Virus record (IMG/VR): IMGVR_UViG_3300049139_000178 | Coordinates: 1 to 64,000 of that record | Length of the DNA: 64,000 nucleotides | Direction: 5' to 3' (one strand) | Origin: a virus | Shown: positions 9,425 to 64,000 of the stretch, piece after piece | Layout of the letters: each line of letters starts with the position of its first letter | Position numbering within the stretch: position 1 is the stretch's first letter | Made by a program: the position numbers and the translations under genes | Notes under the pieces: generated by a model | What the model was told of the DNA's origin: nothing | What the model saw: only the letters and a program-made list of their open reading frames with translations | The model's database searches: none

Positions 9425-9622
9425 TCAGCCGTTCGTCACGGTGTGCTTAGAGCATCGGGCGTGCCCCTGCATCTTCATCCGCTTGCACTTCCCACCGGCC
9501 CGCGTGGGGGCACCGCACTGGCGGGCCGAGTCGTGCGAAGCGCACACGAGCTGGCCGGGCTGCACCGGGTTGATGCAGCCGTAGCCGTTCGACGTGGTGG
9601 CCGAGCAGCGGGCGGTGCTCAT
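9425..9622 (-). CDS. small tandem C3H zinc-ribbon protein
   Basis: two C-x9-C-x10-C-x2-H repeats; GACCAAGGA upstream. Confidence 0.7.
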   Translation of the reverse strand: MSTARCSATTSNGYGCINPVQPGQLVCASHDSARQCGAPTRAGGKCKRMKMQGHARCSKHTVTNG

Positions 9623-9681
9623 GGGTCCCTCGTTCCTTGGTCGGGGGCCCGGGAGCCGCTGGGGCTCCCGGGCCGGGGTCC

Positions 9682-49937: not shown

Positions 49938-50192
49938 ATGGACAGCATGACGGGCTACATCGACACCTTGTGCGGCCACATCGTGGATCTTCACGATAGG
50001 TATGAGTTGTCGCCTGCGTTCCACTCACGTACTGGGACGGACCTTCAGATCCGGTTGCAGTTCCTCGGGGAACTTACCGGGCTGCGTCGTGCCCTTGCCA
50101 TCGCGCTGGGGGAAGACCCGGAGCAGGAGTGCGACATCGAGGGCGCGGCGGACACGTACGTCCGCGAGTGGCGTGAGAAGCACAAGCGCTGA
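49938..50192 (+). CDS. hypothetical protein
   Basis: own box at about 49872-49910; hairpin downstream. Confidence 0.65.
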   Translation: MDSMTGYIDTLCGHIVDLHDRYELSPAFHSRTGTDLQIRLQFLGELTGLRRALAIALGEDPEQECDIEGAADTYVREWREKHKR

Positions 50193-50247
50193 TACCGGAC
50201 CCTCACCCACTAGAACCCCGGCGCCCTTCCGGTCCGGGGCTCCGCCG

Positions 50248-51654
50248 ATGCTCCGGAAAGCAACGGCCGCAGCTCCACCGACAATGACCCCCATGGTGGA
50301 CCGGAAGCTGAGCCGCGCGGCGGCCGAACGGCTGCTGATGCACGCGCGCACGCTGACCGAGCCGCGCTGGACTCCGCTGCCCCACCAGGTCCCGCCCGAG
50401 GGCGACTGGTACGGCTGGTTGCTGCTCGCGGGCCGTGGCGCCGGCAAGACAGACGCCTGCGCGCGGTACGTCCACGAGCACGTCATGGGCCCGCCGTGCC
50501 TACCGGGTCCCACCCCGCACTGGATCGGCATCATCGCGCCCACCCTCGGCGACGCGGCCACGTCCTGCTACGCCGGTCCGTCCGGACTCCGGGTGCACAG
50601 CCCCGAGGCTCGGATGATGACCGTCCAGGGCGGCACGGTCATCCGCTGGCCCAACGGCTCCGAGGCGAAGCTGTTCGGCGCCGACAGCCCCGGCAGCGTC
50701 GAGCGCCTGCGGTCCGGCGGTAACCGCTGCCTCTCGTGGTTGGAAGAGCTGGCGGCCTGGCGCTACCTGGACGACACCTGGGACCAAATGCGCTTCGGCC
50801 TGCGCACTGGTCCCCGGCCGCACTGGGTGGCGTCCACCACGCCGAAGCCCCGGGCGCTGATCAAGAAACTCGCGTCCGGCGGAGTCGAGAACGTGGTGCG
50901 CACCCGGGCGTCCATGTACGACAACCCCCACCTGCCCGAGGACATCAAGGCCGCGCTGGAGGACGCATACGGCAGTACGCAGATCGGCCGCCAGGAGCTG
51001 CACGCCGAGATCATCGACCAGGACGAGAACGCGCTGTGGACTCGCGACACGATCGACGCCCACCGACTGCGCCCGGCGGACCTCCCGGACCTCGCGCGGA
51101 TCTCCGTCGGCGTAGACCCCTCCGGCGGCCGGGGCGAGCAGGGCATCGTCGTCGTGGGCAAGGCTATGCAGGAGCACGTCCGAACCGACGGCCGCCCGGC
51201 GCAGCTCGCCCACGGCTACGTCCTCGCCGACCGGACGTGCCACCTTTCCCCGGACGGCTGGGGCCGGCGTGCGGTTCAGGCGGCCGTCGACTACGACGCG
51301 GACGATATCTGCTGTGAAGTGAATTTTGGCGGGGACATGGCCGTCAACACGATCCGGGCGGCGGCCGACGCGATGGGCGTGCGCATCCCGATCCGCACCG
51401 TGCGCGCCACGCGGGGGAAGAAGGTGCGCGCGGAGCCGGTGTCGGCCCTGTCCGAGCAGGGCCGCTGGCACATGGTGGGGGAGTTCCCCGAGCTGGAGGA
51501 CCAGATGTGCACCTGGTACGACGAGCTGGACTGGAGCCCCGACCGGCTGGACGCGATGGTGTGGCCGGCCTGGCACCAGCGGATCGTGAAACCGACAATG
51601 ACCGGCACGACGTCGTCCAAGGGCCTGGCCACCGCTGCGCGGACCATCGGATGA
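50248..51654 (+). CDS. terL: terminase large subunit
   Basis: PLPHQ, AGRGAGKT, WLEE, STTPK, DNPHL, VGVDPS, EVNFGG, SPDRLDA; start uncertain. Confidence 0.92.
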   Translation: MLRKATAAAPPTMTPMVDRKLSRAAAERLLMHARTLTEPRWTPLPHQVPPEGDWYGWLLLAGRGAGKTDACARYVHEHVMGPPCLPGPTPHWIGIIAPTLGDAATSCYAGPSGLRVHSPEARMMTVQGGTVIRWPNGSEAKLFGADSPGSVERLRSGGNRCLSWLEELAAWRYLDDTWDQMRFGLRTGPRPHWVASTTPKPRALIKKLASGGVENVVRTRASMYDNPHLPEDIKAALEDAYGSTQIGRQELHAEIIDQDENALWTRDTIDAHRLRPADLPDLARISVGVDPSGGRGEQGIVVVGKAMQEHVRTDGRPAQLAHGYVLADRTCHLSPDGWGRRAVQAAVDYDADDICCEVNFGGDMAVNTIRAAADAMGVRIPIRTVRATRGKKVRAEPVSALSEQGRWHMVGEFPELEDQMCTWYDELDWSPDRLDAMVWPAWHQRIVKPTMTGTTSSKGLATAARTIG

Positions 51655-51783
51655 CGTGCGGAGTTGGTGATTTGGGCAGACGGTTGAAGAATCGCCGCCC
51701 CGGACGGGTGACGTGGGGTTGTCCGGCGTACGGGAGCATGGTTTAGTAAATTCATCGGTGACCACGGAACAGAGGAGCAGACC

Positions 51784-52713
51784 ATGGAACTTGACCCCAA
51801 CCTCCGCGAGATGGCGGACGACCTCAAAAACAGGCTTGCCTGGACCCCGGGCCTCGGATGGCTGTACTGGGACGGCAAAACCTGGGTGACGCAGTTCGGC
51901 GCGGACGAGGCGGCCGACCGGGTGAACCAGTGGCGGGAAGAGCACGGGCACCGCCGACTCTCTGACAGGCACGTCCGTACGATCCTCCGTCAGCTCCAGG
52001 TTGTTCTGGAGATCGACGCGCAGACCCTGGACTCACACCCCGGCCTGCTCAACGTGCAGAACGGCGTGGTGGACCTCTTCACCGGAACGCTGCACCCGCA
52101 CGACCCCGCCTTGCTGCTGACCAAGGTAGCGGCTGTCGATTACGACCCCGACGCTCAGAGCCCGGCCTGGGACCAGGTACTCGCGGCCCTGCCGCCCGGA
52201 GTGCCTTTCCGGCTCGGATCGTTCGTCGCGGGAGCCGTAACCGGAGAACCTGCCGATTCGGCCGCCGTCCTGCACGGCCCGGGGTCGTCCGGGAAGTCGA
52301 CGTTCCTTCGGCCGCTATGCGATGCCCTCGGGAACCACGCGCTGTACTCGGTCAATTGGCCCCTGGCCGGGGACCTGCGCGGTGTCCGTCTCGTCGTGGC
52401 TGAGGAGATCGGGCGCATCAACACCGGTCAGTTGAAGCTCCTGCTCACAGAGAGCATGATCGTCACGCGGCACCCCCACCGGGACCCTTACACGTTCAAG
52501 CCGTCACACAGCCTGGCCCTGGTGACAGGACCGCACGACGATCGGGGGCTGGACGAAGGTACCCGGCGGCGCCTGAACCCCATCGAGTTCGAGGAGCTGA
52601 CCGACCCGGACCCGAGCCTGCGACCCCGCCTGAAGGAGACCGAAGCCCTGCGCGCTGCTCTCGCGTGGGCTGTGGGTCAAGTTACACCGTTGCCGGGAGC
52701 AGTGGGCCGCTGA
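51784..52713 (+). CDS. second, compact D5-N/SF3 helicase (P4 primase C-terminal-like)
   Basis: GLGWLYWDG, LNVQNGVVDL-x-TG-x-L-x-PHDP, GPGSSGKST, RRL; paralogue of the 33243 fusion core. Confidence 0.8.
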   Translation: MELDPNLREMADDLKNRLAWTPGLGWLYWDGKTWVTQFGADEAADRVNQWREEHGHRRLSDRHVRTILRQLQVVLEIDAQTLDSHPGLLNVQNGVVDLFTGTLHPHDPALLLTKVAAVDYDPDAQSPAWDQVLAALPPGVPFRLGSFVAGAVTGEPADSAAVLHGPGSSGKSTFLRPLCDALGNHALYSVNWPLAGDLRGVRLVVAEEIGRINTGQLKLLLTESMIVTRHPHRDPYTFKPSHSLALVTGPHDDRGLDEGTRRRLNPIEFEELTDPDPSLRPRLKETEALRAALAWAVGQVTPLPGAVGR

Positions 52714-52819
52714 ACGCAGCCGTTGACCACCCACCCTGAAGCGCGAAAGGAGGATCCACTATGTGCCCCACGTGCCACGGACGAGATGGCCAGCACCACG
52801 TCCAGTGCCCCCAGTTCTG

Positions 52820-52869
52820 ACCACGACGAAGCCCCGGCGCCCTCGCGGCCCGGGGCTTCGTCGTGCCCC
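52820..52869. terminator. perfect hairpin terminator (inverted copy of the 41-bp repeat)
   Basis: CACGACGAAGCCCCGG...CCGGGGCTTCGTCGTG. Confidence 0.8.
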
Positions 52870-52928
52870 GAGATGGTGAATCGGCGGATCTGCCCTACCC
52901 TGCCCGGGTCTCTTCCTCGGGAGGAATC

Positions 52929-53294
52929 ATGGGCAAGGTGTACGGGCGGGAACCGGCCGTGTGGCTGGCGGCCGTCGGAGCGGTGTGGCAGATCCTCAGC
53001 GCGTTCGGCCTCGGGTTCGACCCGCAGCTCCAGTCCATCATCACCGCCATCGTCGCGGCCGTGCTCGGCATCATCGTCGCCGTGCAGGTAGGTGACGGCA
53101 TCATCGCGGCCCTGAACGGCCTCGTGGTCGCGGGCGTCTCCCTCACCGCGTACTTCGGGTTCGACTGGGACGCCGAGACGCAGGCCAAGGTCGTCGGCGC
53201 CGTCATGCTGATCGTCGCGTGGCTGTTCACCCGGCCGAACGTCACCGCGCCGCAGCCCGCCACCGTTTCCCCTCCAGGCAAGCTCGTCGCTTGA
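52929..53294 (+). CDS. holin-like four-TM membrane protein
   Basis: GREPA start and four hydrophobic segments. Confidence 0.6.
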   Translation: MGKVYGREPAVWLAAVGAVWQILSAFGLGFDPQLQSIITAIVAAVLGIIVAVQVGDGIIAALNGLVVAGVSLTAYFGFDWDAETQAKVVGAVMLIVAWLFTRPNVTAPQPATVSPPGKLVA

Positions 53295-53404
53295 CGCAAC
53301 TAGGTCACCAGGCGCAACGTCTCTCCTACGGCGGGGCGCTCGGCCTGGTGACCACCTCCAACACGTCGCCCGACAGGGCGTCCCGTCCACATGACCATGG
53401 AGCC

Positions 53405-53842
53405 GTGACCGTGCCCGTCTGGCTGCTCATCGCCTGCATGATCCTCGCGAACTACCGTGCCGCGCGCCTCGCCGTGCGGGATACGTTCCCGCCTGTGCTG
53501 TGGCTGCGTGACCGTCTCGCCGGCGGGTGGCGCCCATTGACGGAACCAGAGCAGGAACGGCACGCGGCCCCTCAGCCGTCTAATGAAGAGCCGTTCGTGC
53601 GTCATCCGGCCCTCGGCACGCTGACGCTCATCGACGGCCGGGTGAACCGCTACGTGCGCCGCAAGAGCTGGTCGCCGTACTGGCTGGCGGAGCTGCTCAC
53701 TTGCCCGTGGTGCGTGTCCGGGTGGCTGTCCGCCGCGCTCACCGCAGCCGTCGCCTTCACTGTCGGCGTCCCGGCGCCGGTGCTCGTGTGGGGCGCGGTA
53801 TGGGGTGCCTCCGCCTTGCTCGCCTCGCGCGAGTGGGCCTGA
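53405..53842 (+). CDS. DUF1360-like membrane protein
   Basis: YR-x2-RL-x3-DT, ELLTCPWC-x-S-x-W. Confidence 0.75.
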   Translation: MTVPVWLLIACMILANYRAARLAVRDTFPPVLWLRDRLAGGWRPLTEPEQERHAAPQPSNEEPFVRHPALGTLTLIDGRVNRYVRRKSWSPYWLAELLTCPWCVSGWLSAALTAAVAFTVGVPAPVLVWGAVWGASALLASREWA

Positions 53843-53887
53843 CCTGAATCACCCCGAACCGTCGACCGCAGCCGATAGCCTGCGGTC

Positions 53888-54154
53888 GTGAACGTTACGA
53901 GGAATTCTGACGGCAGCCATGAGCCCCCGTACGACGAGAGCTGGCCGCCCCGCATGCAGCTCGAATGGTCCGCCGGCGTAGTCGCATCCAAGACGGGACT
54001 ACGCATCCACATCAGCGAGCTGGGCGAGGACCAGTACGCGGTCCGGGTCGGCAGCAGCGGACTGAGCCCCATGAACCTTGCCAACGCGTACGCCTTCCTG
54101 GACGGAGTCTCGGTCGGAGCGCGGGAGACCTCGGTTGTCAGTGCCTCGCGGTAA
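53888..54154 (+). CDS. hypothetical protein
   Basis: fills the gap between neighbours; protein-like composition. Confidence 0.55.
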   Translation: MNVTRNSDGSHEPPYDESWPPRMQLEWSAGVVASKTGLRIHISELGEDQYAVRVGSSGLSPMNLANAYAFLDGVSVGARETSVVSASR

Positions 54155-54163
54155 CTTCCCGAC

Positions 54164-55432
54164 ATGACCGACACCACCACATCGCTCCCGGTCTACGAGC
54201 GCCGGGACATCCCCGAGCAGCACCGGCACCTGCGCACAATGACGGAGCTGAAGAAGGACCGGCTGAAGCCCGCCGAGGGGCAGGAGCCCGTGGCCATGCT
54301 GCGGGTCTACCGGCGCGGGCACGGCTGGGGCAAGTTCCCGCTGTACGACCCGGCTGGCGCGGCGAAGATGCGCCCGCTGTCCGCGAAGCAGCAACGGGCC
54401 ATGGAAGTCCGGCGCACCTGCCCCGAGTGCGAGGCCGTGCGCGGGTACGTCGTCTACACCCGGTGCACCGACTGCCGTACGAAGGCGCAGCAGGAAGCGC
54501 AGGACCGCCGGGCCCGGACCTGCGAGCGGTGCCGACGGGTGTCCGGGGCCGCGCTGCCGAAGGACGTACACGGCTGGCCGGCGTGCGACCCGTGCCGGAT
54601 CCGTTACGCGCTCTGCAAGCAGCTCGCCGACGAGCGCGCGGCCGTGTGGCGCCGTACCTGCCCCGGATACCCGGGCCACGACTGCACGGTGCAGACAGCA
54701 ACCGATGAGGAAATCACTGAGGCGTGGAACGCCGGAGACTACACCGGCCCCTGGCGATGCCCGCCGTGCGCGGAGGCCTACGACAGGTGGCAGGAGACCC
54801 AGCACCGCGAAGCGGAGGAGAACGGGCGCCGCGCTGAGGAAGCGCGGGAGCGGCAGGTCGCCGACCTGTCCGCGTGGGCGCGGGACGCCCTCGCCGACCC
54901 GGCCGTGGTCGTCCTGGACACGGAGACGACCGGGCTGCACGACGAGGCGCGCATCGTCGACCTGGCTGTGCTGACCGCCGGCGGCGACGTCCTCGTGGAC
55001 ACGTTGCTCGACCCGGGCGAGCCGATCCCGGCCGAGGCGTGGGGAGTTCACGGCATCTCCGACGCGGACGTGCAGAGGGCGCCCCGGTTCGGCGACATCC
55101 TGGTGCAGCTGACCGGCGCACTGGTCAACCGCCGGTGCCTGATCTACAACGACACGTTCGACGTCGCCCGGCTGCGTCACGAGCTGACGCTGCACTACCG
55201 CGAGGCCGGCCACGACGACCCGGCCGCCTCCGCCGCCGCGTGGCTGGGCACGATGCGGTTCGAGGACGTGATGGTGCCGTACTCGGACTGGTTCGGGGAG
55301 GAGTCACCCTTCGGCGACTACCGCTGGCAGCCGTTGTACGGCGGGGACCACCGGGCCGCCTCCGACTGCCGCGCGGTGCTGGACCGGCTGCGCGACATGG
55401 CCTCCGGGGTTGTCGACCCGGTCGAGTCATGA
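54164..55432 (+). CDS. zinc-finger plus DEDDh 3'-5' exonuclease (DnaQ-like)
   Basis: LDTETTGL, VHGI, YN-x2-FD, HRA-x2-D; N-terminal CxxC array. Confidence 0.88.
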   Translation: MTDTTTSLPVYERRDIPEQHRHLRTMTELKKDRLKPAEGQEPVAMLRVYRRGHGWGKFPLYDPAGAAKMRPLSAKQQRAMEVRRTCPECEAVRGYVVYTRCTDCRTKAQQEAQDRRARTCERCRRVSGAALPKDVHGWPACDPCRIRYALCKQLADERAAVWRRTCPGYPGHDCTVQTATDEEITEAWNAGDYTGPWRCPPCAEAYDRWQETQHREAEENGRRAEEARERQVADLSAWARDALADPAVVVLDTETTGLHDEARIVDLAVLTAGGDVLVDTLLDPGEPIPAEAWGVHGISDADVQRAPRFGDILVQLTGALVNRRCLIYNDTFDVARLRHELTLHYREAGHDDPAASAAAWLGTMRFEDVMVPYSDWFGEESPFGDYRWQPLYGGDHRAASDCRAVLDRLRDMASGVVDPVES

Positions 55433-55473
55433 TTTAATCAAATCAGTAACACCGACCAAGGAAGGCAGGACCC

Positions 55474-55875
55474 ATGACCCTCATCGCCAAAGGTCCAGTG
55501 TGGACCGGCCGCATCTACGGCGTCCGCGCACGGGCAGCCACGTGGGAGATGACCCCGGTGGAGCTGGCCCGCGTGTTCGCCCACGCGCATGGCTACCGGA
55601 CGGCCGTCGGCGGGTGGATCTACGACCCGGAAGGGCACCCCGTTGCCCACGGCTGGCAGTCTTTTGCCGACGCTCTCGCCGCGCGGGGGTGGATCGTAGA
55701 AGGCAAGGGCGTCGCCTGGACGAAAGCCACGTGGGAAGGCAACCGGCTCCCGCTGTCCAAGTCCTACCGCACGGAACTCGCCCACGACGCCAAGATGCAG
55801 GCGCAGGGACGCGAGCTGCGGCGCGTCATGCGCGGCGGCCGGATGGTCACCGCATGGGTGCCGAAGGGCTGCTGA
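55474..55875 (+). CDS. hypothetical protein
   Basis: box and GACCAAGGA upstream. Confidence 0.7.
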   Translation: MTLIAKGPVWTGRIYGVRARAATWEMTPVELARVFAHAHGYRTAVGGWIYDPEGHPVAHGWQSFADALAARGWIVEGKGVAWTKATWEGNRLPLSKSYRTELAHDAKMQAQGRELRRVMRGGRMVTAWVPKGC

Positions 55876-55920
55876 CACGACGAAGCCCCGGAGTCACGGG
55901 ACTCCGGGGCTTCGTCGTGT
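55875..55920. terminator. bidirectional hairpin terminator
   Basis: ACACGACGAAGCCCCGGAGTC-loop-GACTCCGGGGCTTCGTCGTGT between convergent genes. Confidence 0.85.
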
Positions 55921-57005
55921 CACAGGAACCGGTCGACCAGGCCCTCATACACCGCCACGGCCGCCGCCGCGTGCGTGCGCTTGAGCGCCTCGTCGTCCCG
56001 GCGCCGGATGTACCGCATGGTCGTCGCCACCTGGCTGTGGTCGGCGAACCGTCGGATGTCGTCGGGCTTCACACCCTGGTCGTACATGTGGGTGAGCTTG
56101 CTCGCCCGCAGGACGTGTGGGGTGAGGTCCCGGCCGGGCAGTACGCCGGCCGCGCGGCCCAGGCGGTTCAGCAGCCGGTCCACCGCGTGCCGGTCCATCG
56201 GCCGATCGTCGTCATCGAGCAGCAGCGGCCCGGAGGTCCGGCCCTGCCAGCACACGGCCCCGAGTTCGCACAGCTTCGGAGGCAGGGTGAACTTCCGGCC
56301 CTTGCCGCCCTTGCGGGTCAGGTCCAGTTTGCACTCCCCGCCGGACGGCTTCATGTGCTGCATCCCGGCCGCGCAGCACTCCGAGACGCGGCCGGCCAGC
56401 GTGTAGATGAGCACCGGCACGAGGGCCTGCCGGGGCGTGGCCGCCTGCTCCACCACGGCCTGGAACTCAGGCACTTCGAGAATCGGCGTCATGGCCGTCT
56501 CGTCGTGCGGGTCGATCACCGGCCGGTCGTACCGGGTGATGGGGTTGATGATCTCCAGCCGGGTGCGGAACTTGGTGTACTCGATCAGCGAAGTCAGCGA
56601 CGACGCCAGGCGGTTGACCCGGCGGGGCCCGAGGCCGATGTCCGTTGTCCAGGCCCGCCAGGCCGGGATGACGTCGGAGGTGATCGCCCCGAGGTAGAAG
56701 GGCTCGGTGCCGACCAGCTCCCGAGCGGCCCTCGCCCAGTGGCGGACGTCGTCGGCGTACTCGCGCCGGGTGCCGTCGCTGGTGAGCCGCTCGGAGTTCA
56801 GCCACCCCACCACGTGCTCGAACGTCTCCGGCGCGCACAGCTCGTGCAGGAGGTCCAGCCGGTGGACGCGCGGTCCGAGCCGGCGGTTCTTTGGGTCGCG
56901 CGGGGCGACCGTGCCCAGTTTCTCGCGCAGGCCCAGCATGGTGCGCAGCGCCACGTTGCCGTCGGCCGAGATCGTGTCGGCCCCTGCCGCCGTCATGATC
57001 GTCAT
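55920..57005 (-). CDS. tyrosine recombinase (XerC/D-like)
   Basis: R (GRVSE), K (RKGGK), HVLR, H (ADH), Y (TMRY). Confidence 0.92.
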   Translation of the reverse strand: MTIMTAAGADTISADGNVALRTMLGLREKLGTVAPRDPKNRRLGPRVHRLDLLHELCAPETFEHVVGWLNSERLTSDGTRREYADDVRHWARAARELVGTEPFYLGAITSDVIPAWRAWTTDIGLGPRRVNRLASSLTSLIEYTKFRTRLEIINPITRYDRPVIDPHDETAMTPILEVPEFQAVVEQAATPRQALVPVLIYTLAGRVSECCAAGMQHMKPSGGECKLDLTRKGGKGRKFTLPPKLCELGAVCWQGRTSGPLLLDDDDRPMDRHAVDRLLNRLGRAAGVLPGRDLTPHVLRASKLTHMYDQGVKPDDIRRFADHSQVATTMRYIRRRDDEALKRTHAAAAVAVYEGLVDRFL

Positions 57006-57369
57006 GGCAGATGAGCCTATCCCTGCGGCCCCTGGCCCGTCTGCACCCAGGGGTGGCGGGCTGTCCTCCTTTGGCCGTGACGCCTCAGGTGAGCAGGGGC
57101 CGCGCCTCGGTGATATGTCCGATCCGTGGGAGCCATGGCAGTCACGTGCCGTCGGACTCGCTCACACGAGGAAAACGGGCCTGGGTCCAGTCTGGCACAC
57201 AGGATGTATCGGGGCGGCGACGTGCTCAAAACACACGTTTTGCGCTTCGCCCAGAGCGATTCTGCGGCAGACGGGTTCCGTGGCATCCTCCGGGTTGTCC
57301 TCTGCGGGACCCTATGGTTTAATTAATTCATCGGGCAACGAGCCGGAAGACCAAGGAAAGAAGGAACGC

Positions 57370-57561
57370 ATGGCCGTCAACCTCCCCACTCCTCTCCCGC
57401 AGTGCCCCAAGCACGGCAGGATGCAGCTCCGTCCGGGCCACACCCTGGAACAGCGGTGGTGCGGGACCTGGTACGACTGCACCGAGCCTCGGTGCAGCAC
57501 TTCAACGCTTCTGGCTTCCCCCGCGTTGACGGCTTCGCTGGAAGTGCAGCGAACCGCCTGA
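57370..57561 (+). CDS. small zinc-finger protein
   Basis: CPKH...C...C...C; box and GACCAAGGA upstream. Confidence 0.65.
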   Translation: MAVNLPTPLPQCPKHGRMQLRPGHTLEQRWCGTWYDCTEPRCSTSTLLASPALTASLEVQRTA

Positions 57562-57592
57562 CCCGCCGTACAGACCAAGGAGACCTCGTCGC

Positions 57593-57889
57593 ATGAGCGA
57601 CCCCACCCCGATCCGCCGCCCTGCCCGGACAGGTCACCGATGCATCTGCGGTGCTACGTGGCGGCCGGGGTTCTCCTCGGATCCCGCGTGGCTCTTCACG
57701 GCGGATCCCCGGCTGAGCACCTTCGTCGGACTGCTGCACTGCCAGGCGTGCGGCCGGCGGAAGACCGACGTGCTCCGGGAGCAGGCCGAGCAGAAGCGCG
57801 CGGCCACCCCACCGGCCATCCCGCCTCGCGAGCGCCCGCCGGCCAAGGTTCTTCCGTTCAGGAAGCCCTCGGCCGACGAGGCCAACTGA
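57593..57889 (+). CDS. zinc-finger hypothetical protein
   Basis: CICG...CQACG; GACCAAGGA upstream. Confidence 0.65.
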   Translation: MSDPTPIRRPARTGHRCICGATWRPGFSSDPAWLFTADPRLSTFVGLLHCQACGRRKTDVLREQAEQKRAATPPAIPPRERPPAKVLPFRKPSADEAN

Positions 57890-57908
57890 CCAAGGAAAGA
57901 GGGACCCG

Positions 57909-58136
57909 ATGAGTGGGCTGACCAGGCACGGAAAGGTGATCACGTACACCGACGAGTCCGGAGACAGCATCGAGATCACCGCTGCGCGGGATAGCGGCGG
58001 ACGTCCGGTGGTTGCCCTGGTCCCGGTGCTGGACGCGGGTGGCGAACTCGTGCACGTGGCCGACGAGGACGTGGAGGAGTTCATCGCGGCCGTCCGCGAG
58101 AAGCAGGTAGAGGCTCGGGAGAAGTACGACACCTGA
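57909..58136 (+). CDS. hypothetical protein
   Basis: GACCAAGGA upstream. Confidence 0.7.
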   Translation: MSGLTRHGKVITYTDESGDSIEITAARDSGGRPVVALVPVLDAGGELVHVADEDVEEFIAAVREKQVEAREKYDT

Positions 58137-58164
58137 CGCCCGGCAGACCAAGGAAAGAAGGACC

Positions 58165-58581
58165 ATGACGCGCACCGCTAACGACAGGATGCGGAGCAAC
58201 GCCCGCCTGCGGATGTTCAGCCTCGCCCGGGGCCACGGCGGCTTGAAGACCGTGGCCGACGTGGAGCAGCGCACGAACATGAACGACGCGCGTATAGCAC
58301 TGTGCTTCGCGATGGGTGTGGACCCGGAGGACATCGACCCGAGCAGCGGCCACCACATCGGCCGGTCGGCGTACGAGAACAGCCGGACCTCATGGGTCGA
58401 CCACATAGCGCAGTTCGGGTGGAGCGACTACTACGACGGCCCCGCGCTCGCCGAGGTCATGGAGCGCTGGGCCGCACGGCGCCCACAGTTCACCGCCGGG
58501 GACGACTGGAAGGCGGCCGGGATAGCCGCACACCTTCTGCGCTCGTGCAGCCGATCGCCCTGCGACGTGCACGCAGACTGA
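58165..58581 (+). CDS. hypothetical protein
   Basis: GACCAAGGAAAGAAGGA upstream. Confidence 0.7.
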   Translation: MTRTANDRMRSNARLRMFSLARGHGGLKTVADVEQRTNMNDARIALCFAMGVDPEDIDPSSGHHIGRSAYENSRTSWVDHIAQFGWSDYYDGPALAEVMERWAARRPQFTAGDDWKAAGIAAHLLRSCSRSPCDVHAD

Positions 58582-58661
58582 CGGGTTGTGCCCCTGCCCG
58601 AGCTATGATTTAATTAAGTCATCGGGCAGGGGCCCGCCGGACCAAGGAAAAGGAACCGACC

Positions 58662-58730
58662 ATGACCGCTGTAGCCGTCGAACTGATCCCCGCTGTCGCC
58701 TGCGCCGAGGCCGGCCACAGCACCCACTGA
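58662..58730 (+). CDS. 22-aa micro-ORF (MTAVAVELIPAVACAEAGHSTH)
   Basis: perfect box at 58583-58623 and GACCAAGGAAAAGGAACCGACCATG. Confidence 0.45.
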   Translation: MTAVAVELIPAVACAEAGHSTH

Positions 58731-58797
58731 CGCCAGACACGACGAAGCCCCGGGACAACTACGCTTTGGGGCCCACCCGAACCGAGGAGAACACAGG

Positions 58798-59028
58798 ATG
58801 AGCGACACTCAGACCACCACGTGCACCCGGAAGACTGTCGACCGCTGGTGCCAGCCCGACCCGTCGGGTCTCTTCGGTGAGCCGAACCCCACTCCGGAGG
58901 ACCCCGGGCCGTGGAAGGACGGGGAGACCGTCGTCTGCCGCTGTGGCGCCGAGGTTGAGGTGACCCACCGGATTACCAACCAGCGTGAGACCGGCACGCA
59001 GTATGTCGGTGACCTCGCCGCGCACTGA
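58798..59028 (+). CDS. hypothetical protein
   Basis: GAGGAGA RBS; hairpin at about 59036-59080. Confidence 0.65.
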   Translation: MSDTQTTTCTRKTVDRWCQPDPSGLFGEPNPTPEDPGPWKDGETVVCRCGAEVEVTHRITNQRETGTQYVGDLAAH

Positions 59029-59091
59029 CCCCAGACGCGACGAAGCCCCGGGACTCCACCACAGGTCCCGGGGCTTCGCTGTTGCGGTCCG

Positions 59092-59472
59092 TCACACGGA
59101 CCAGTGCCGGCCACCCGCCGCACCGAAGGCACCGACGTACACCCGGTGCGTGTAGTCGCCGGACTGCCACCGTGTCCCCGCCGCGCCCGCGATGAAGCGA
59201 TGGCACGTACGTTCGATAATACGGTGCAGCTCGGGGAACTGGAGGCCCAGGAGCAGGCCCGACATCTCCACCCCTTCCGGGGCCGGCAGGGCCGCCGCGT
59301 CTTCGTCGCCGGTCGCCTCGTGCACGGCGGCCCGGATAGCCAGGACGCGGACCGCGTCGGCCATGCTCCCGGCGACGGCAGGCATCTCCGGGTCGGCCAT
59401 CCACTGTCCGTGGATCTCCATCGCCCGCCGGGCGGTCGTCTCGACGTCGGACAGAGTGCTGGTGGCGGCCAT
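59092..59472 (-). CDS. hypothetical protein
   Basis: GGAGGA RBS; divergent from the GntR gene. Confidence 0.65.
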   Translation of the reverse strand: MAATSTLSDVETTARRAMEIHGQWMADPEMPAVAGSMADAVRVLAIRAAVHEATGDEDAAALPAPEGVEMSGLLLGLQFPELHRIIERTCHRFIAGAAGTRWQSGDYTHRVYVGAFGAAGGRHWSV

Positions 59473-59522
59473 GCGGTCCTCCGTGTGTGATTTATCGAAT
59501 TCACGGGAATGCCCCTGTGAGA

Positions 59523-59554
59523 CTTCCTACAGGAACTGCCCCTCCTGTAGGAAG
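59523..59554. promoter_or_regulatory. 12-bp inverted repeat, probable GntR operator
   Basis: CTTCCTACAGGA-N8-TCCTGTAGGAAG in the divergent intergenic region. Confidence 0.6.
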
Positions 59555-59613
59555 CTAAGGCACGGCTGGGGTACCGTCAACCACATCCGATAGGAAGACC
59601 CGAGGAGATACCC

Positions 59614-60291
59614 ATGGCAGGGACCGTCGCACGCATGGTTTCGTACCTGAGGGCCCGTATTGACCTGGGAACACTGAAGCCGGGCGACCGACTGCCGCCG
59701 ACGGCGGCCCTGATGAAGCAATTCATGATCAGCGACAACGCGGTGTACCGGGGGATCGCGCTCTTGAAGGCTGAGGGCTACGTCACCTCCCAGCAGGGCA
59801 AGGGAGTGTTCGTTGCCGACCGGCGTCGGCTCATCGTCGGTGAGAAGCGTATCCAGGGCATTACGCAGGCCGGTGAGACGATCAACCACAAGCGGAGCGT
59901 CCGCGTGCAGGCGCCTGACTGGGTCGCCGAGTTCCTCGGGGAGGGCGAGTGCGTGAACCGCGTCCGTACGGTGATCCGTGGGGGCGCGGTCGTGCAGGCG
60001 TCGCAGTCGTGGGTGCACCTCGCGGTTGCCGACGTCGTCCCCGAGATCGACGAGCCCCGGGCCTGTGACCCCACGTGGCAGGCCGTCTATCAGGACCGTT
60101 CGGGCAACCCGGTGAAGGTAGCGTCCAAAACGGGCATCGTCCGCACCACGACGGACGAGGAGCGCGAGGAGTTCGGCCTGGACGCCGACCGGGAGGTGCT
60201 GGTCGTCCGCAGCGTCTACGTCACCGGCAACACGGTGATCGGCGTCGGCGAGGCCGCGTATGCGCCGGATAACCCTCTGATCATGTCCTGA
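59614..60291 (+). CDS. GntR (HutC/UTRA-type, KorSA/TraR-like) transcriptional regulator
   Basis: PGDRLP, L-x2-EGYV...GKGVFV; UTRA-like C-terminus. Confidence 0.88.
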   Translation: MAGTVARMVSYLRARIDLGTLKPGDRLPPTAALMKQFMISDNAVYRGIALLKAEGYVTSQQGKGVFVADRRRLIVGEKRIQGITQAGETINHKRSVRVQAPDWVAEFLGEGECVNRVRTVIRGGAVVQASQSWVHLAVADVVPEIDEPRACDPTWQAVYQDRSGNPVKVASKTGIVRTTTDEEREEFGLDADREVLVVRSVYVTGNTVIGVGEAAYAPDNPLIMS

Positions 60292-60340
60292 TCAAGCGAG
60301 CAGCGCACCGAAAACCCGACCAAGGAATGAGGAAACGATC

Positions 60341-60577
60341 ATGGCCGTGAACAAGCTGACTCCGGGAATGATCGACGTGGACGTCCCCGGCTGGGAACTG
60401 GAAGGCGAAGTCCGCGACTGCCACGAGACGTTCAGCGAGACGCCCGCGCGGGACGTGGAGAAGGCCAAGCGCTGGGCCAACCAGCGCATCGGCCGCCGCC
60501 TCGTCTGGCGCAAGGTAGTGGAGCGGGGGTTCGAGCACTACGAGGCCAACGCCGTCGACGACCCCTACGACCGTTGA
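60341..60577 (+). CDS. hypothetical protein
   Basis: GACCAAGGAATGAGGAA upstream; hairpin downstream. Confidence 0.7.
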   Translation: MAVNKLTPGMIDVDVPGWELEGEVRDCHETFSETPARDVEKAKRWANQRIGRRLVWRKVVERGFEHYEANAVDDPYDR

Positions 60578-60785
60578 CCCTTCCTCAGCCGTGAACCCCG
60601 GAGCCCCTCACGCTCCGGGGTTTCTTCGTACCTGAGGGTTGCGTGCATCCCACAACTATGGTTTAATTAATCCATGATCGACGACCCTTGGGAGCTGGTC
60701 TCCCCGGGCGCGGATCAGGAGTACGGAACCAGGAACATAGGAACGGGCCGTCAGAGCGCGGCCCCCACATCCGAAGGATGGCATC

Positions 60786-61058
60786 GTGACCGCCACGAGC
60801 ACCCCCTTTGCACTCCTCGCTGAGGTCCCGGCCCCGCCCGCCGACCGAACCCCGGAGTTCACGTTCGACCCCTTCCGCCAGCTCAACGTGACGACGGCTG
60901 GGGACGCCGTGATCGACGTCGCCGACGTCCAGTCCATGACGATGACCCACAACAGCAAGGGATTCAAGAAGGACGACGACTTCGCCCACGCCCCGCACGC
61001 CCTGCTCGGGCCGACCATGACCCACAACTCCTCCGGGCACAAGAAGGACGACGACTGA
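60786..61058 (+). CDS. ATP-grasp RiPP (graspetide) precursor peptide with two core repeats
   Basis: leader PFAL and FDPFRQLNV; two TMTHNSxGxKKDDD cores; TGATG-coupled to the ligase. Confidence 0.85.
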   Translation: MTATSTPFALLAEVPAPPADRTPEFTFDPFRQLNVTTAGDAVIDVADVQSMTMTHNSKGFKKDDDFAHAPHALLGPTMTHNSSGHKKDDD

Positions 61059-62065
61059 TGCCGCTCCCACCCACCGTGCTTGTCGTCACCGCGCCTGACG
61101 ACCTCAGCGCCGATCTCGTGATACGGCAGATCCAGGAACGCGGCGTCACCATCCACCGCCTGAACCCTGCTGACCTCGCGCGTCCGGGGGCCCTGAGGAT
61201 GACCGGCGTCTCAGACGGAGAGCCGTTACGGTTCACCATCGAAGACAACCACCGCTCCACGCTCTCGCAGTCGGTTGTCTCCGTTTTCTGGTGGCACCCG
61301 GGCCTGCCCGGTGGGTGGGAGCAGCAGGAGTCCCGGGCCATCCTGGAGGACTTCCTGTACGGCCTTGACGGGACGCTGTGGGTGAACCACCCGCTCCGGG
61401 CACAGGCTGCCCGGCCCGGCCCACGGCAACTGCACGTCGCTTCGTCTCTCGGCCTCCGGACTCCACCCGCACTGTTCACCAACGACCCCGACCAGGCCGC
61501 TGCGTTCGCCGCCGAACAAGGCGGCAAGGTGGTGTGCAAGACCCTCACCGCACACCCGGACCGGTTCGTCCAGGCCCGGCTGGTGTCCTCCGGGGAGATC
61601 CTGGCCAACGCAGATCACGTGCGGCAGAGCGTGTGTTACTTCCAGCGGCCTGTGGACAAGACGCACGACATCCGACTGACGGTGATCGGCGACCGGATGT
61701 TCCCGTGCAAGGTCACCGCCGGCGGTGCGTTCGACTGGAGGGCGGCACCGGAGGACGACCTGGGTTTTGAGGCTGTGGGCGCCAGCCTGCCGCTGACGCA
61801 GAAAGTCCGGAAACTCATGCAGACGCTGGGGCTGGAGTACGCCGCCCTGGACTTCGCCGTCGACCAGGGCGGCACGTGGTGGTTCCTGGAAGCGAACCCG
61901 GCGGGCCAGTTCGGTTTCGTGGAGACGTCTACAGGGATGGTCATTTCGCGGGCCATCGCCGACCACCTCGTTCAAACGGCCCTGGCCACCCACGTCTACA
62001 CTCCCGGAGGCGGCCACCGAGCATATTCGGGGACGCCTTGGCAACGGGGGTCCGCCGGCGTGTAG
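61058..62065 (+). CDS. ATP-grasp ribosomal peptide maturase (MvdC/D, TgmB-like)
   Basis: VLVVT-x2-DD-x-SAD-x-V, WVNHP, QL-x2-A-x3-GL-x-TP, VCK, FQ, DIR, DF, WFLEANP-x-GQ. Confidence 0.9.
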   Translation: MPLPPTVLVVTAPDDLSADLVIRQIQERGVTIHRLNPADLARPGALRMTGVSDGEPLRFTIEDNHRSTLSQSVVSVFWWHPGLPGGWEQQESRAILEDFLYGLDGTLWVNHPLRAQAARPGPRQLHVASSLGLRTPPALFTNDPDQAAAFAAEQGGKVVCKTLTAHPDRFVQARLVSSGEILANADHVRQSVCYFQRPVDKTHDIRLTVIGDRMFPCKVTAGGAFDWRAAPEDDLGFEAVGASLPLTQKVRKLMQTLGLEYAALDFAVDQGGTWWFLEANPAGQFGFVETSTGMVISRAIADHLVQTALATHVYTPGGGHRAYSGTPWQRGSAGV

Positions 62066-62327
62066 AGCATCGGACCGGAACACCCCACAGGCCCCGGAGC
62101 ATCCCCGCTCCGGGGCCTTCGTGCGTGAGTAGGCGAAAACGACCTTCCGACGTACAGTGCCCACGTTTCCCCGACTTCCTCGGGTCAGGGTGCACAGGGG
62201 TGCGTGAGCCCCGCCGGTGTGGTGGTCGGCGGGGCTCACGCGCGGGCAGGACCCCGTTTGCCGTGAAAACGGCTATTCGGATGATCGCGGCTACCATGCC
62301 CTCCGATCCGAACCGGGGAGGTATGCC

Positions 62328-64000
62328 GTGCCGTGGTACGACGCATTCCGGGGGCGCGTGGCTCGGGAGCCCGCTCCGCTGCCTCAGCTGCCTGAAGGGC
62401 TGACGGCCGCCGCTGCTCCGCCGCCCGGACCGGAGACCAAGTTCTTGCGCCGCACCGAGGCCTGGCAGGAAGAGGTCTGGCGCTTCCACGACACGCTCGG
62501 CGAGTTCAATTACGGCGTCGGGTGGTTGGCCAACATGCTTTCCCGGGTGCGCCTGCGGGCGGGCCGCCTGAAGCCGGGCTCCGATGAACCGGACATCGTC
62601 ACCTCCGGCACAGCCGCCGACCTCATGATGCTGTTCGGCGGGGGAGTCGCCGGCCAGTCGCAGCTCATGCGACGCCTCACGGTTCAGCTCGCGCTGCCCG
62701 GCGAGGGCTATCTGGTCGGCGAGCAGGACGGCAAAGTCGAGCGCTGGCAGGTCCGGTCCGTGGACGAAATCCGCGTGCAGTCCGGCAAGTACCAGGTGAT
62801 GGACGAGGAGTCGGCCACCACCGGCCAGGACTGGCGTGACCTCGCCGAGGACCACCACGTCGTCCGCGTCTGGCGACCGCATGACCGCTACTTCCACATG
62901 GCAGACTCCCCGGCGCGCAGTGCTCGCGAGATCATGCGTGAGCTGGAGCTGGTCAACCGGAAGATCGCAGCCGAGTACTTGTCCCGGCTGGCCTCTGCCG
63001 GCCTCCTTCTGCTCCCTGACGAGCTTTCGTTCCCGGTTCGCGAGGAGTTCGCCAACGACCCGGACAACGCCAACCCGCTGATGTCCGAGTGGATCGAGAT
63101 CGCCGCGACGGCGATTCAGAACCCCGGCACCGCCTCGGCCGTGGTGCCCATCCCGCTGGTCGGCCCGGCCGAGGCCATCGAGAAAGTGAAACACGTCGAC
63201 TTCACGTTGAAGATTGACGAGAAGATCATCGAGAAGCGGGACAGCGCGATCAAGCGACTGGCAACCAAGTTGGACATGCCGGCCGACGTGCTGCTGGGCA
63301 TGGGCGACGTCAACCACTGGGGGCAGTGGCAGATCGAGGAATCCGGGCTCAAGACGCACATCGCCCCCGTCGCGGAACTGATCTGCGACGCCCTCACGCG
63401 CGGCTACCTCCAGCCCCGGCTGGAAGCGTCCGGAGAGGACCCGGCCGCGTGGGTCGTCTGGTACGACATGAGCGAGCTGGCTCTGAGCCCGGACCGCAGC
63501 GGGAACGCCACCCTGGCCTACGACCGGCTGGAGCTGTCCGGCGAGGCGTACCGCCGGGAGCTGGGGTTCGACGAGGACGACGCACCGGACGACGAAGAGC
63601 TGCGGGTACAGTCCCTCAAGTCCATCATCCGCACCCTGCCGTCCGGCGCCGCGTCGGCCCTGGCGCAGCTGCTCGGCGAGGACGTCCCGCAGATCGTCCC
63701 GGTCTCCCCGCAGGATCCCGGCACAGCCGAAGCCGTGCAGCAGGGCGACACGCCTCCGCCGGCGAACCAGCAGCCGACCGAGGAGGGCGCGGGCCGCGCG
63801 GCGCCGCCGAGCGATGAACCCTCGCCTACACAGGGCCGGACCGGGCCACCCTCGCGAGACCAGCAGGCTACGGCTGAGCGAGCGCAACGGCTCGTACAGC
63901 AGGCCCGGACGCAGCACATGCTCCGCGTCGGCGCGACGAACCGGTGGGACCTGCTGCACCCCGGCATCTGCGGAGAGCACGAGTACTCGTGCCCGTTCAC
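62328..64000 (+). CDS. phage portal protein (partial, runs off the window)
   Basis: GGGGAGG RBS, GTG; WQEEVW-x2-HD-x-LGE-x2-Y-x3-W-x-AN-x2-SRVRL, RVWRPH, SRLASAG, LLGMG-x-VNHW, typical of actinophage portals. Confidence 0.8.
   Translation, partial: MPWYDAFRGRVAREPAPLPQLPEGLTAAAAPPPGPETKFLRRTEAWQEEVWRFHDTLGEFNYGVGWLANMLSRVRLRAGRLKPGSDEPDIVTSGTAADLMMLFGGGVAGQSQLMRRLTVQLALPGEGYLVGEQDGKVERWQVRSVDEIRVQSGKYQVMDEESATTGQDWRDLAEDHHVVRVWRPHDRYFHMADSPARSAREIMRELELVNRKIAAEYLSRLASAGLLLLPDELSFPVREEFANDPDNANPLMSEWIEIAATAIQNPGTASAVVPIPLVGPAEAIEKVKHVDFTLKIDEKIIEKRDSAIKRLATKLDMPADVLLGMGDVNHWGQWQIEESGLKTHIAPVAELICDALTRGYLQPRLEASGEDPAAWVVWYDMSELALSPDRSGNATLAYDRLELSGEAYRRELGFDEDDAPDDEELRVQSLKSIIRTLPSGAASALAQLLGEDVPQIVPVSPQDPGTAEAVQQGDTPPPANQQPTEEGAGRAAPPSDEPSPTQGRTGPPSRDQQATAERAQRLVQQARTQHMLRVGATNRWDLLHPGICGEHEYSCPF

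Follow-up and report, generated by a model that had tools for sequence, protein, structure and literature searches.

A 64,000-nt stretch of viral DNA (positions 1 to 64,000 of the IMG/VR virus record IMGVR_UViG_3300049139_000178; the window below means this whole stretch) was found to carry a two-gene unit on its + strand at 60.58–62.13 kb, in which a hairpin, a promoter-like box, a 5' leader, the open reading frame (ORF) of a short peptide, the ORF of an ATP-grasp ligase and a second hairpin follow one another. This unit is very probably a self-contained two-gene graspetide cassette, carried as moron cargo by a Streptomyces phage-plasmid of ~95 kb, a statement that concerns its identity and cargo status and not its biological role. 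The modified peptides known as graspetides form a large class, and the functions tested so far are protease inhibition (10.64898/2026.08.04.741601). The features of the unit are given below, with peptide lengths in amino acids (aa).

60593–60632, + strand: upstream terminator hairpin, closing the preceding unit (fold 60593–60623, -23 kcal/mol, z -4.5; T-rich tail)
60636–60674, + strand: promoter-like box (-35-like GGGTTGCGT, 17-nt spacer, -10-like TTTAAT within a 19-nt quasi-palindrome at 60656–60674)
60675–60785, + strand: 5' leader of ~110 nt, in which a remnant of the GGAACCAGGAAC-type leader motif of the element was read from the sequence
60786–61058, + strand: predicted graspetide precursor, 90 aa, GTG start (leader motifs, two cores)
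61058–62065, + strand: predicted ATP-grasp peptide macrocyclase (graspetide synthetase), 335 aa, with a pre-ATP-grasp domain (family, structure and motif matches)
62086–62123, + strand: downstream terminator hairpin (RNA fold -30.1 kcal/mol, z -6.7)

A ribosome-binding site (GAAGGA, 60773–60778) lies 7 nt 5' of the GTG start of the precursor, and the precursor stop and the ligase start overlap by one base (TGATG), an arrangement indicative of translational coupling. The first-pass annotation, made from the sequence alone, had read here a box, a 90-aa precursor coupled to an ATP-grasp ligase, and a terminator hairpin directly before the portal gene. All were recovered: the two ORFs share the single base, the box at 60656–60674 has one mismatch to its motif, and the downstream fold precedes a portal gene that starts at 62217. 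The GC content at third codon positions (GC3) was coding-like in both genes (0.92 in the precursor and 0.83 in the ligase), against 0.70 for a long antisense ORF, in window DNA of 69% GC. The upstream and downstream hairpins (60593–60623 and 62086–62123) are alike in sequence, and neither was listed by a simple terminator scan because their T-tracts are short.

The best family match of the ligase was TIGR04187, a family of actinobacterial ATP-grasp peptide maturases (E 7.4e-74); this model, TIGR04185 and TIGR04184 all matched over the full length, and the MvdC and MvdD models matched with E 4e-39 and 9e-29, respectively. Sequence matches in the Protein Data Bank (PDB) were all to graspetide macrocyclases, with 9bou (E 5.7e-38) and MdnB (5ig8, E 4.9e-33) accompanied by AMdnB, MdnC, CdnC and PsnB. 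An AlphaFold2 model of the ligase, built with 49 homologues, reached a predicted local distance difference test score (pLDDT) of 90.6, and its top Foldseek match was again 9bou, which is PruB, the prunipeptin ligase of Streptomyces coelicolor, followed by AMdnB, MdnC, CdnC and PsnB; the top 25 fold matches were all graspetide ligases, ahead of RimK and LysX. Residues K161, Q196, R206, D226, R228, D265, E278 and N280 are invariant in 49 aligned ligases, that of the window included, with K161 as the strand Lys, R228 in the DWR motif, and E278 and N280 in FLEANP. As judged from this alignment, the ATP-binding, Mg-binding and acyl-phosphate/catalytic residues are intact, and by homology the enzyme is a graspetide macrocyclase, that is, an ATP-grasp ligase of the type that matures peptides made on the ribosome and modified after their translation (RiPPs).

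At the start of the central domain the usual K-x-x-Q-L motif is replaced by RPGPRQL, as had been noticed in the first pass. About 29 sequence clusters are at least 60% identical to the ligase, beyond which the next relatives fall to 40%. These 29 close relatives share the motif (R/K)-P-G-P-x-Q-L, with two one-residue exceptions, and the Gly occurs in all 29, as against Lys in 49 and Arg in one of the 50 outgroup ligases. In a maximum-likelihood tree, rooted by the outgroup only, the clade received a support of 100/99 and was set off by a long stem (1.39 changes per column), and the Lys-to-Gly change is, on the sequences compared, diagnostic of a monophyletic clade of 29 ligases. Identity within the clade spans 60–93%, with the catalytic residues conserved; the basic residue two positions before the Gly is also conserved and might compensate for the loss of the Lys. 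The ligases of the clade carry in addition a C-terminal tail of ~25 residues (window 61988–62062, residues 311–335) with a partly conserved Gly-Gly-His stretch, which is disordered in the model (pLDDT <50) and missing from more distant ligases.

The precursor is composed of a leader, core 1 (residues 52–65), an 11-residue linker ending in Gly-Pro, and core 2 (residues 77–90). The P-h-h-x-h leader motif defined for graspetide precursors (PMC8939145) is present as PFALL at residues 7–11, and the PFAL and FDPFRQLNV leader elements and the two 14-residue cores of the first-pass description were all found. Residues 7–46 weakly matched PF14404 (Strep_pep, E 0.0036) and TIGR04186 (E 0.027), and such weak matches recur in 22 of the 23 members of the precursor family, with best E values of 3.9e-5 and 4.3e-6, respectively. 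When the family profile was compared with a PruA-like peptide encoded by the chromosome of a host strain, 36 leader columns were aligned (hhalign E 8.6e-5), with PFAL and YD..QLNV in common. The family consists of 23 sequence clusters, two cores being present in 22 of them, and the cores take the form T/S-x-T-H-N-x-x-G-x-K-K-D-D-D, position 1 being read as Thr or Ser in the alignment rows. In both cores the Thr at position 3, the His, the Asn, the Lys before the Asp run and the Asp run itself are invariant or nearly so across the 23 clusters, even though the precursors are only 56–84% identical.

The locus thus presents a ligase with a pre-ATP-grasp domain and its catalytic residues, next to a co-oriented precursor with a leader motif and donor/acceptor cores, and the earlier proposal of a graspetide-type pair is upheld by family, PDB and fold matches, by core conservation and by the leader profile. 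In the mechanism that we propose, transcription would start at the pair's own copy of the repeated box, acting as a sigma-70-like promoter. The ligase would dock on the leader through PFALL and the YD..RQLNV hairpin, phosphorylate Asp side chains in the DDD tail of each core at the expense of ATP, and close the rings with two Thr/Ser hydroxyls as esters and possibly with Lys as an amide, so that the outcome would be two macrocyclic modules on one peptide.

The pair was taken in the first pass to be phage-encoded, and the content of the window agrees with this. It encodes a fused primase-helicase-PolA, a helicase, a cytosine methylase and an Rpf/NlpC-P60/LysM lysin, together with a large terminase, an exonuclease, a tyrosine integrase and a portal, the last matching portals of Gordonia, Arthrobacter and Streptomyces phages (tblastn, 31–38% identity, E down to 1e-71). 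The window ligase lies on a 94,961-bp contig and its closest relatives on contigs of 92.6–95.7 kb, several of them viral; one close relative comes from a 126.6-kb record whose annotation is that of a Streptomyces plasmid. A portal 69% identical to that of the window, followed by a capsid gene, is encoded by the linear plasmid pS1D4-14.2 (98.8 kb). The related elements overall are viral contigs of 92–99 kb and this linear plasmid with portal and capsid genes, which supports the assignment of the element as a Streptomyces phage-plasmid of ~95 kb.

Within this element the pair is flanked by the following genes, all on the same strand.

59614–60291, + strand: GntR/UTRA-family regulator (PF00392 E 1.5e-13, UTRA E 3.9e-4), context, not tied to the cassette
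60341–60577, + strand: 78-aa ORF, context (GC3 0.90)
62217–63998, + strand: phage portal gene, context, running past the window end (tblastn, actinophage portals)

The 78-aa ORF had no match in Pfam, NCBIfam or PHROG. The scanned genes, from 51.8 kb to the window end, gave no match to a protease, transporter or methyltransferase, and the lack of an adjacent protease, transporter or O-methyltransferase reported in the first pass holds, the neighbours being the regulator, the 78-aa ORF and the portal.

In a portal-anchored survey, 21 viral contigs were compared. The pair lies directly upstream of the portal in six of them, and no pair was found upstream of it in at least eight further contigs whose flank on that side measures 2 kb or more; wherever a locus was read, the two genes were adjacent and intact. 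An empty site was recognized in one contig (L026, 2153–2333), in which the GntR gene, the counterpart of the ligase-side hairpin and the portal stand in direct succession. The neighbours do not travel with the pair: the GntR gene occurs without it in L026 and L039, the pair occurs without the GntR gene in L028 and L034, and the 78-aa ORF is present without the pair in L030. Other cargo occupies the site in L030 (5754–7001; a small ORF and a ~270-aa ORF of unknown function) and in pS1D4-14.2 (L007, NZ_CP041606.1, 4846–8993; a SAM methyltransferase, an XRE regulator and a PH-domain protein). Presence or absence at a single site, the empty site and the alternative cargo indicate that the pair is a separate accessory unit, housed in a hot spot of the variable integrase-to-portal region. 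With its promoter-like box and two hairpins, set between conserved phage genes, the pair has, as read from the DNA, the anatomy of a moron. The region is unusual in another respect, since the packaging module is interrupted: the large terminase and the portal are ~10.5 kb apart (window 50002–63998), and the interval holds a primase-like gene, an exonuclease, an opposite-strand tyrosine integrase, regulators and the graspetide pair. A tRNA search of the window with ARAGORN was negative.

The box at 60656–60674 departs from the motif CTATGRTTTARTTAAKTCA at a single position. A search that tolerated three mismatches or fewer gave 21 matches in the window, with none expected from shuffled sequences, and the matches were read as 17 distinct sites, all oriented towards the next gene; they include 402, 8288, 13820, 37874, 49891, 57312, 58603 and 60656, and one precedes the large-terminase gene. 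In 16 of the 17 copies GGGTTGY is found 12 nt upstream of the 19-mer, which gives a -35 / 17 nt / -10 (TTTAAT) geometry, and a promoter role is inferred from this arrangement. The first-pass view that the pair stands under the element's own repeated box and is closed by a terminator agrees with the 17 co-oriented copies and two stable hairpins, the activity of the promoter being a prediction. The box is bipartite, GGGTTGY being separated by a 12-nt gap from a quasi-palindromic 19-mer that contains TTTAATTAA, and many copies precede a GACCAAGGAA-type leader immediately 5' of a start codon. As its -10 part lies in a near-palindrome, the box could double as an operator, and the palindrome suggests that a dimeric regulator also binds it. 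An ATG lies at the expected start of the box transcript and could open a leaderless 49-codon ORF (60674–60823); this ORF was rejected as a gene, as neither its length nor its sequence is conserved in two relatives (L001 and L002), and it is probably not one.

Several observations weigh against the identification of the unit or limit its scope. The ligase scored 248.8 bits against a curated TIGR04187 cut-off of 350 bits, and the precursor scored 17.8 and 14.6 bits against a cut-off of 25 for PF14404 and TIGR04186, respectively. The ligases of the clade have lost an otherwise near-universal Lys, and ring formation by the window enzyme is a prediction from homology only. In the AlphaFold2 model of the precursor, whose confidence is low (pLDDT 62), residues 53–62 form a hairpin with Thr52 opposite Asp63. 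At this confidence the ring topology can only be guessed at, a nested pair of Thr-to-Asp esters, possibly with a Lys-to-Asp amide, being a reasonable guess. Three relatives (L001, L002 and L028) have the box and its upstream element ahead of the pair, whereas in three related contigs (L003, L004 and L005, of which L003 and L005 are identical over the stretches compared) the pair has no box and a host-like TAGGCT element instead. The box is not intrinsic to the cassette, and expression under a phage programme is therefore not general. Lastly, a chromosomal copy of the pair in one genome (G044) has no phage gene within 10 kb, as judged by PHROG and Pfam scans of its flanks, so that the clade is not strictly phage-borne.

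This chromosomal copy was the one whose context was read among 14 clade members outside the phage-plasmid subclade. It lies in a low-GC stretch beside an XRE-DUF5753 regulator and a NUDIX gene. A search with the Pfam portal model found nothing in G044, a weak negative since the same model scores the window portal below its cut-off, and no tyrosine integrase was found on the contig that carries the pair. Just upstream of the chromosomal precursor (L023, ~9480–9650, on contig G044:C13) lies a sequence that resembles a tRNA, its D-arm-like and T-arm-like stretches being set apart by extra bases. ARAGORN did not call it, nor any other tRNA beside this copy; the sequence may be the remnant of an integration site.

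The clade was found in two of 401 sampled Streptomyces genomes and in no isolated phage of the phage collection, where the sole matches were two distant ligases. All contigs of phage-plasmid size fall into one subclade (support 99/99), nested among copies on large chromosomal contigs; the copies on contigs of 0.2–7 Mb and those on short contigs make up the unresolved remainder of the clade. This distribution fits a single capture of a host-type locus by the phage-plasmid lineage, followed by patchy loss, as far as can be read from the tree.

The closest known system is that of prunipeptin, PruA/PruB (group 11; PF14404; TIGR04186/TIGR04187, tgmA/tgmB; PDB 9bou), in which the precursor likewise lies directly 5' of a single ligase. 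PruB is the best sequence and fold match of the window ligase (ligase identity 33–36%), the two leaders are alike in their PFAL and YD..QLNV elements, and both types of core offer C-terminal Asp acceptors with Thr and Lys donors. PruB reportedly makes one ester and one isopeptide bond, a result attributed to Unno and Kodani in 2021. The window system differs in having a duplicated 14-residue T/S-x-T-H-N-x-x-G-x-K-K-D-D-D core instead of the single GTTTSTAGSKTHFDD-type core of the prunipeptin system, a Gly in place of the Lys of K-x-x-Q-L, a ligase extended by ~25 residues at the C-terminus, and a phage-plasmid as its site in place of a conserved chromosomal locus. Set against group 11 as a whole, it has the leader motifs, falls below both curated score cut-offs, and lacks the single T-rich ...K-T-H-F-D-D core and the conserved Lys. 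Group 11 is defined in the 2026 update of the RODEO survey by PF14404 precursors and comprises 3,324 clusters (PMC13097080). Both sequenced hosts, Streptomyces genomes that harbour close relatives of the element, carry chromosomal PruA/PruB-like pairs (L021:1447-2637 in G001 and L020:1279-2464 in G002), the ligases being 34–36% identical to that of the window; their 63-aa precursors are near-identical to each other and have a T-rich C-terminal core in common, and each genome contains at least three further graspetide-type ligase matches.

The microviridin and plesiocin systems (groups 1 and 2; MdnB/MdnC and PsnB) are more distant, their ligases having the same fold and chemistry with 20–28% identity. 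Plesiocin inhibits serine proteases and has repeated cores on one precursor (PMC13097080), a design in which the window precursor resembles it. The window locus differs from both in lacking a PFFARFL leader, in its core motifs, and in having one ligase and no GNAT or transporter gene; of the group 1 hallmarks, neither PFFARFL, a T-x-K-x-P-S-D core, two ligases nor an acetyltransferase was found (motifs as in PMC8939145). Mobile graspetide cargo has also been newly recognised in Porphyromonas gingivalis, where the clusters lie on integrative conjugative elements (10.64898/2026.08.04.741601). Like the window pair, they place graspetide biosynthesis in a hot spot of a mobile element; they are grasp-with-SPASM clusters with type I secretion on conjugative elements of Bacteroidota, whereas the window holds a minimal pair on an actinobacterial phage-plasmid. 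As a separate observation, a Leptospira phage of LE1 type (L045, KF114876.1, 2365–3439) has a 37-aa ORF rich in Thr, Lys, Asp and Glu that overlaps the start of a 'RimK-like ATP-grasp' gene, with a ParB gene nearby; its ATP-grasp protein is 27% identical to the window ligase, and the locus may be a second, unrelated phage graspetide pair.

The family itself has been catalogued before. A ligase of Streptomyces sp. NRRL S-455 and its 90-aa neighbour are listed by Makarova et al. 2022 as an ATP-grasp of the 'Actinobacterial branch' with the singleton precursor cluster 6377, both being flagged as matching the set of Lee et al. 2020 (PMC8939145). These proteins (JOCT01000029) are 93% and 82% identical to the ligase and precursor of the window, respectively, and belong to the same family; their locus lies on a 95,726-bp viral contig (L001/L008). 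The entry is a catalogue singleton to which no structure, activity or context is attached. The biosynthetic prediction for the family is thus not new, and the first-pass suggestion that the core motif may define a new group stood in part: the core is unlike the prunipeptin type and the ligase clade is distinct, yet a locus with a 93% identical ligase had already been listed. The word 'phage' is absent from that work (PMC8939145) and from the RODEO survey, which notes integrase and relaxase genes near group 10 (PMC13097080), and a survey of phage-borne biosynthetic clusters, found to be mostly bacteriocins on temperate phages, mentions no ATP-grasp RiPP (10.1101/2020.10.01.322628). In the literature searched no report of a phage-borne graspetide was found, carriage by mobile elements being reported for conjugative elements only. 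In that literature the phage-plasmid setting, the moron anatomy, the clade-wide loss of the Lys and the family-wide two-core design go unreported.

By analogy with characterised graspetides, the product would most likely bind a protease, and the paired Lys residues of the cores suggest that the target is trypsin-like. Of the first-pass interpretation, the nature and the place of the unit are supported, whereas the intracellular protease inhibition and the tuning of lysis and lysogeny also suggested there are not. How the product might serve the element can be read in more than one way. The macrocycle may stay in the cell and block a protease of the host or of a defence system during the phage programme, a possibility to which we attach a low likelihood. 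It draws on the box that the cassette has in common with 16 other units of the element, that of the terminase gene included, on the location in a variable accessory hot spot, and on the report that all functionally characterised graspetides are protease inhibitors (preprint 10.64898/2026.08.04.741601). The lack of an adjacent exporter or leader peptidase points in the same direction; however, export and leader-cleavage genes are scattered over the ligase tree and not universal (PMC8939145), some graspetide groups consist of synthetase and precursor alone (PMC13097080), and with export genes missing from several cellular groups their absence here says little about an intracellular role. Moreover, no target could be identified, relatives drive the pair from a different, host-like promoter, and the chromosomal island copy has no phage context.

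The peptide may instead be released by the carrier and protect it or harm its competitors; the inhibition of superinfecting phages or of extracellular proteases would be an example. Such a lysogenic conversion, to which we attach an equally low likelihood, accords with the classic moron anatomy, in which a unit with its own promoter and terminator lies between conserved phage genes, with the prevalence of bacteriocins on temperate phages among phage-borne biosynthetic clusters (10.1101/2020.10.01.322628), and with the graspetide cargo of the Porphyromonas conjugative elements (10.64898/2026.08.04.741601). It has to contend with the lack of a transporter, signal peptide or cleavage-site peptidase nearby, and with a box that also precedes the terminase gene and is not obviously a carrier-state promoter.

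The PruA/PruB-like pairs on the chromosomes of both sequenced hosts raise the question of cross-talk through common leader recognition motifs, by which the element would mimic or perturb whatever the conserved host peptide does. The leaders are homologous, the ligases are 34% identical, and clusters of the PF14404 type are very widespread (3,324 in group 11; PMC13097080). Such cross-talk is nevertheless unlikely, as the core is distinct and the stem branch is long (1.39 changes per column), both of which speak for specificities that are independent of each other. That the pair is neutral hitch-hiking cargo, or that the ligase acts on another protein and the 90-aa ORF is incidental, would suit the patchy presence among close relatives and the sub-threshold family scores, and is very improbable given a pair that is intact and adjacent in every locus read, core residues invariant across sequences of 56–84% identity, catalytic residues conserved over a clade of 60–93% identity, and translational coupling of the two genes.

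The two-gene graspetide cassette may also be viewed in the light of its origin. In a more specific reading, which we consider doubtful as a whole, a lineage of Streptomyces phage-plasmids captured a copy of the host's widespread prunipeptin-type system and re-tooled it, the changes being the new duplicated Lys/Asp core and a ligase without the near-universal Lys. Its expression under the phage promoter regulon would then serve to inactivate one particular host protease, which might be a defence effector or might control development or cell death. If this were true, no RiPP would have been shown before it to work for a phage in counter-defence or host takeover.

Such pairs are easily missed by routine annotation, because their proteins are recorded as 'hypothetical' in public entries and their Pfam and NCBIfam scores fall below the curated cut-offs. 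The Lys- and Asp-rich scaffold with its two cores, and a ligase that has an unusual substitution next to the active site, are of interest for the enzymology of the class. A distinct, conserved branch of graspetides, carried on phage-plasmids as a unit that runs from promoter to terminator, would offer a compact two-gene system in which the role of a RiPP in a virus may be studied.

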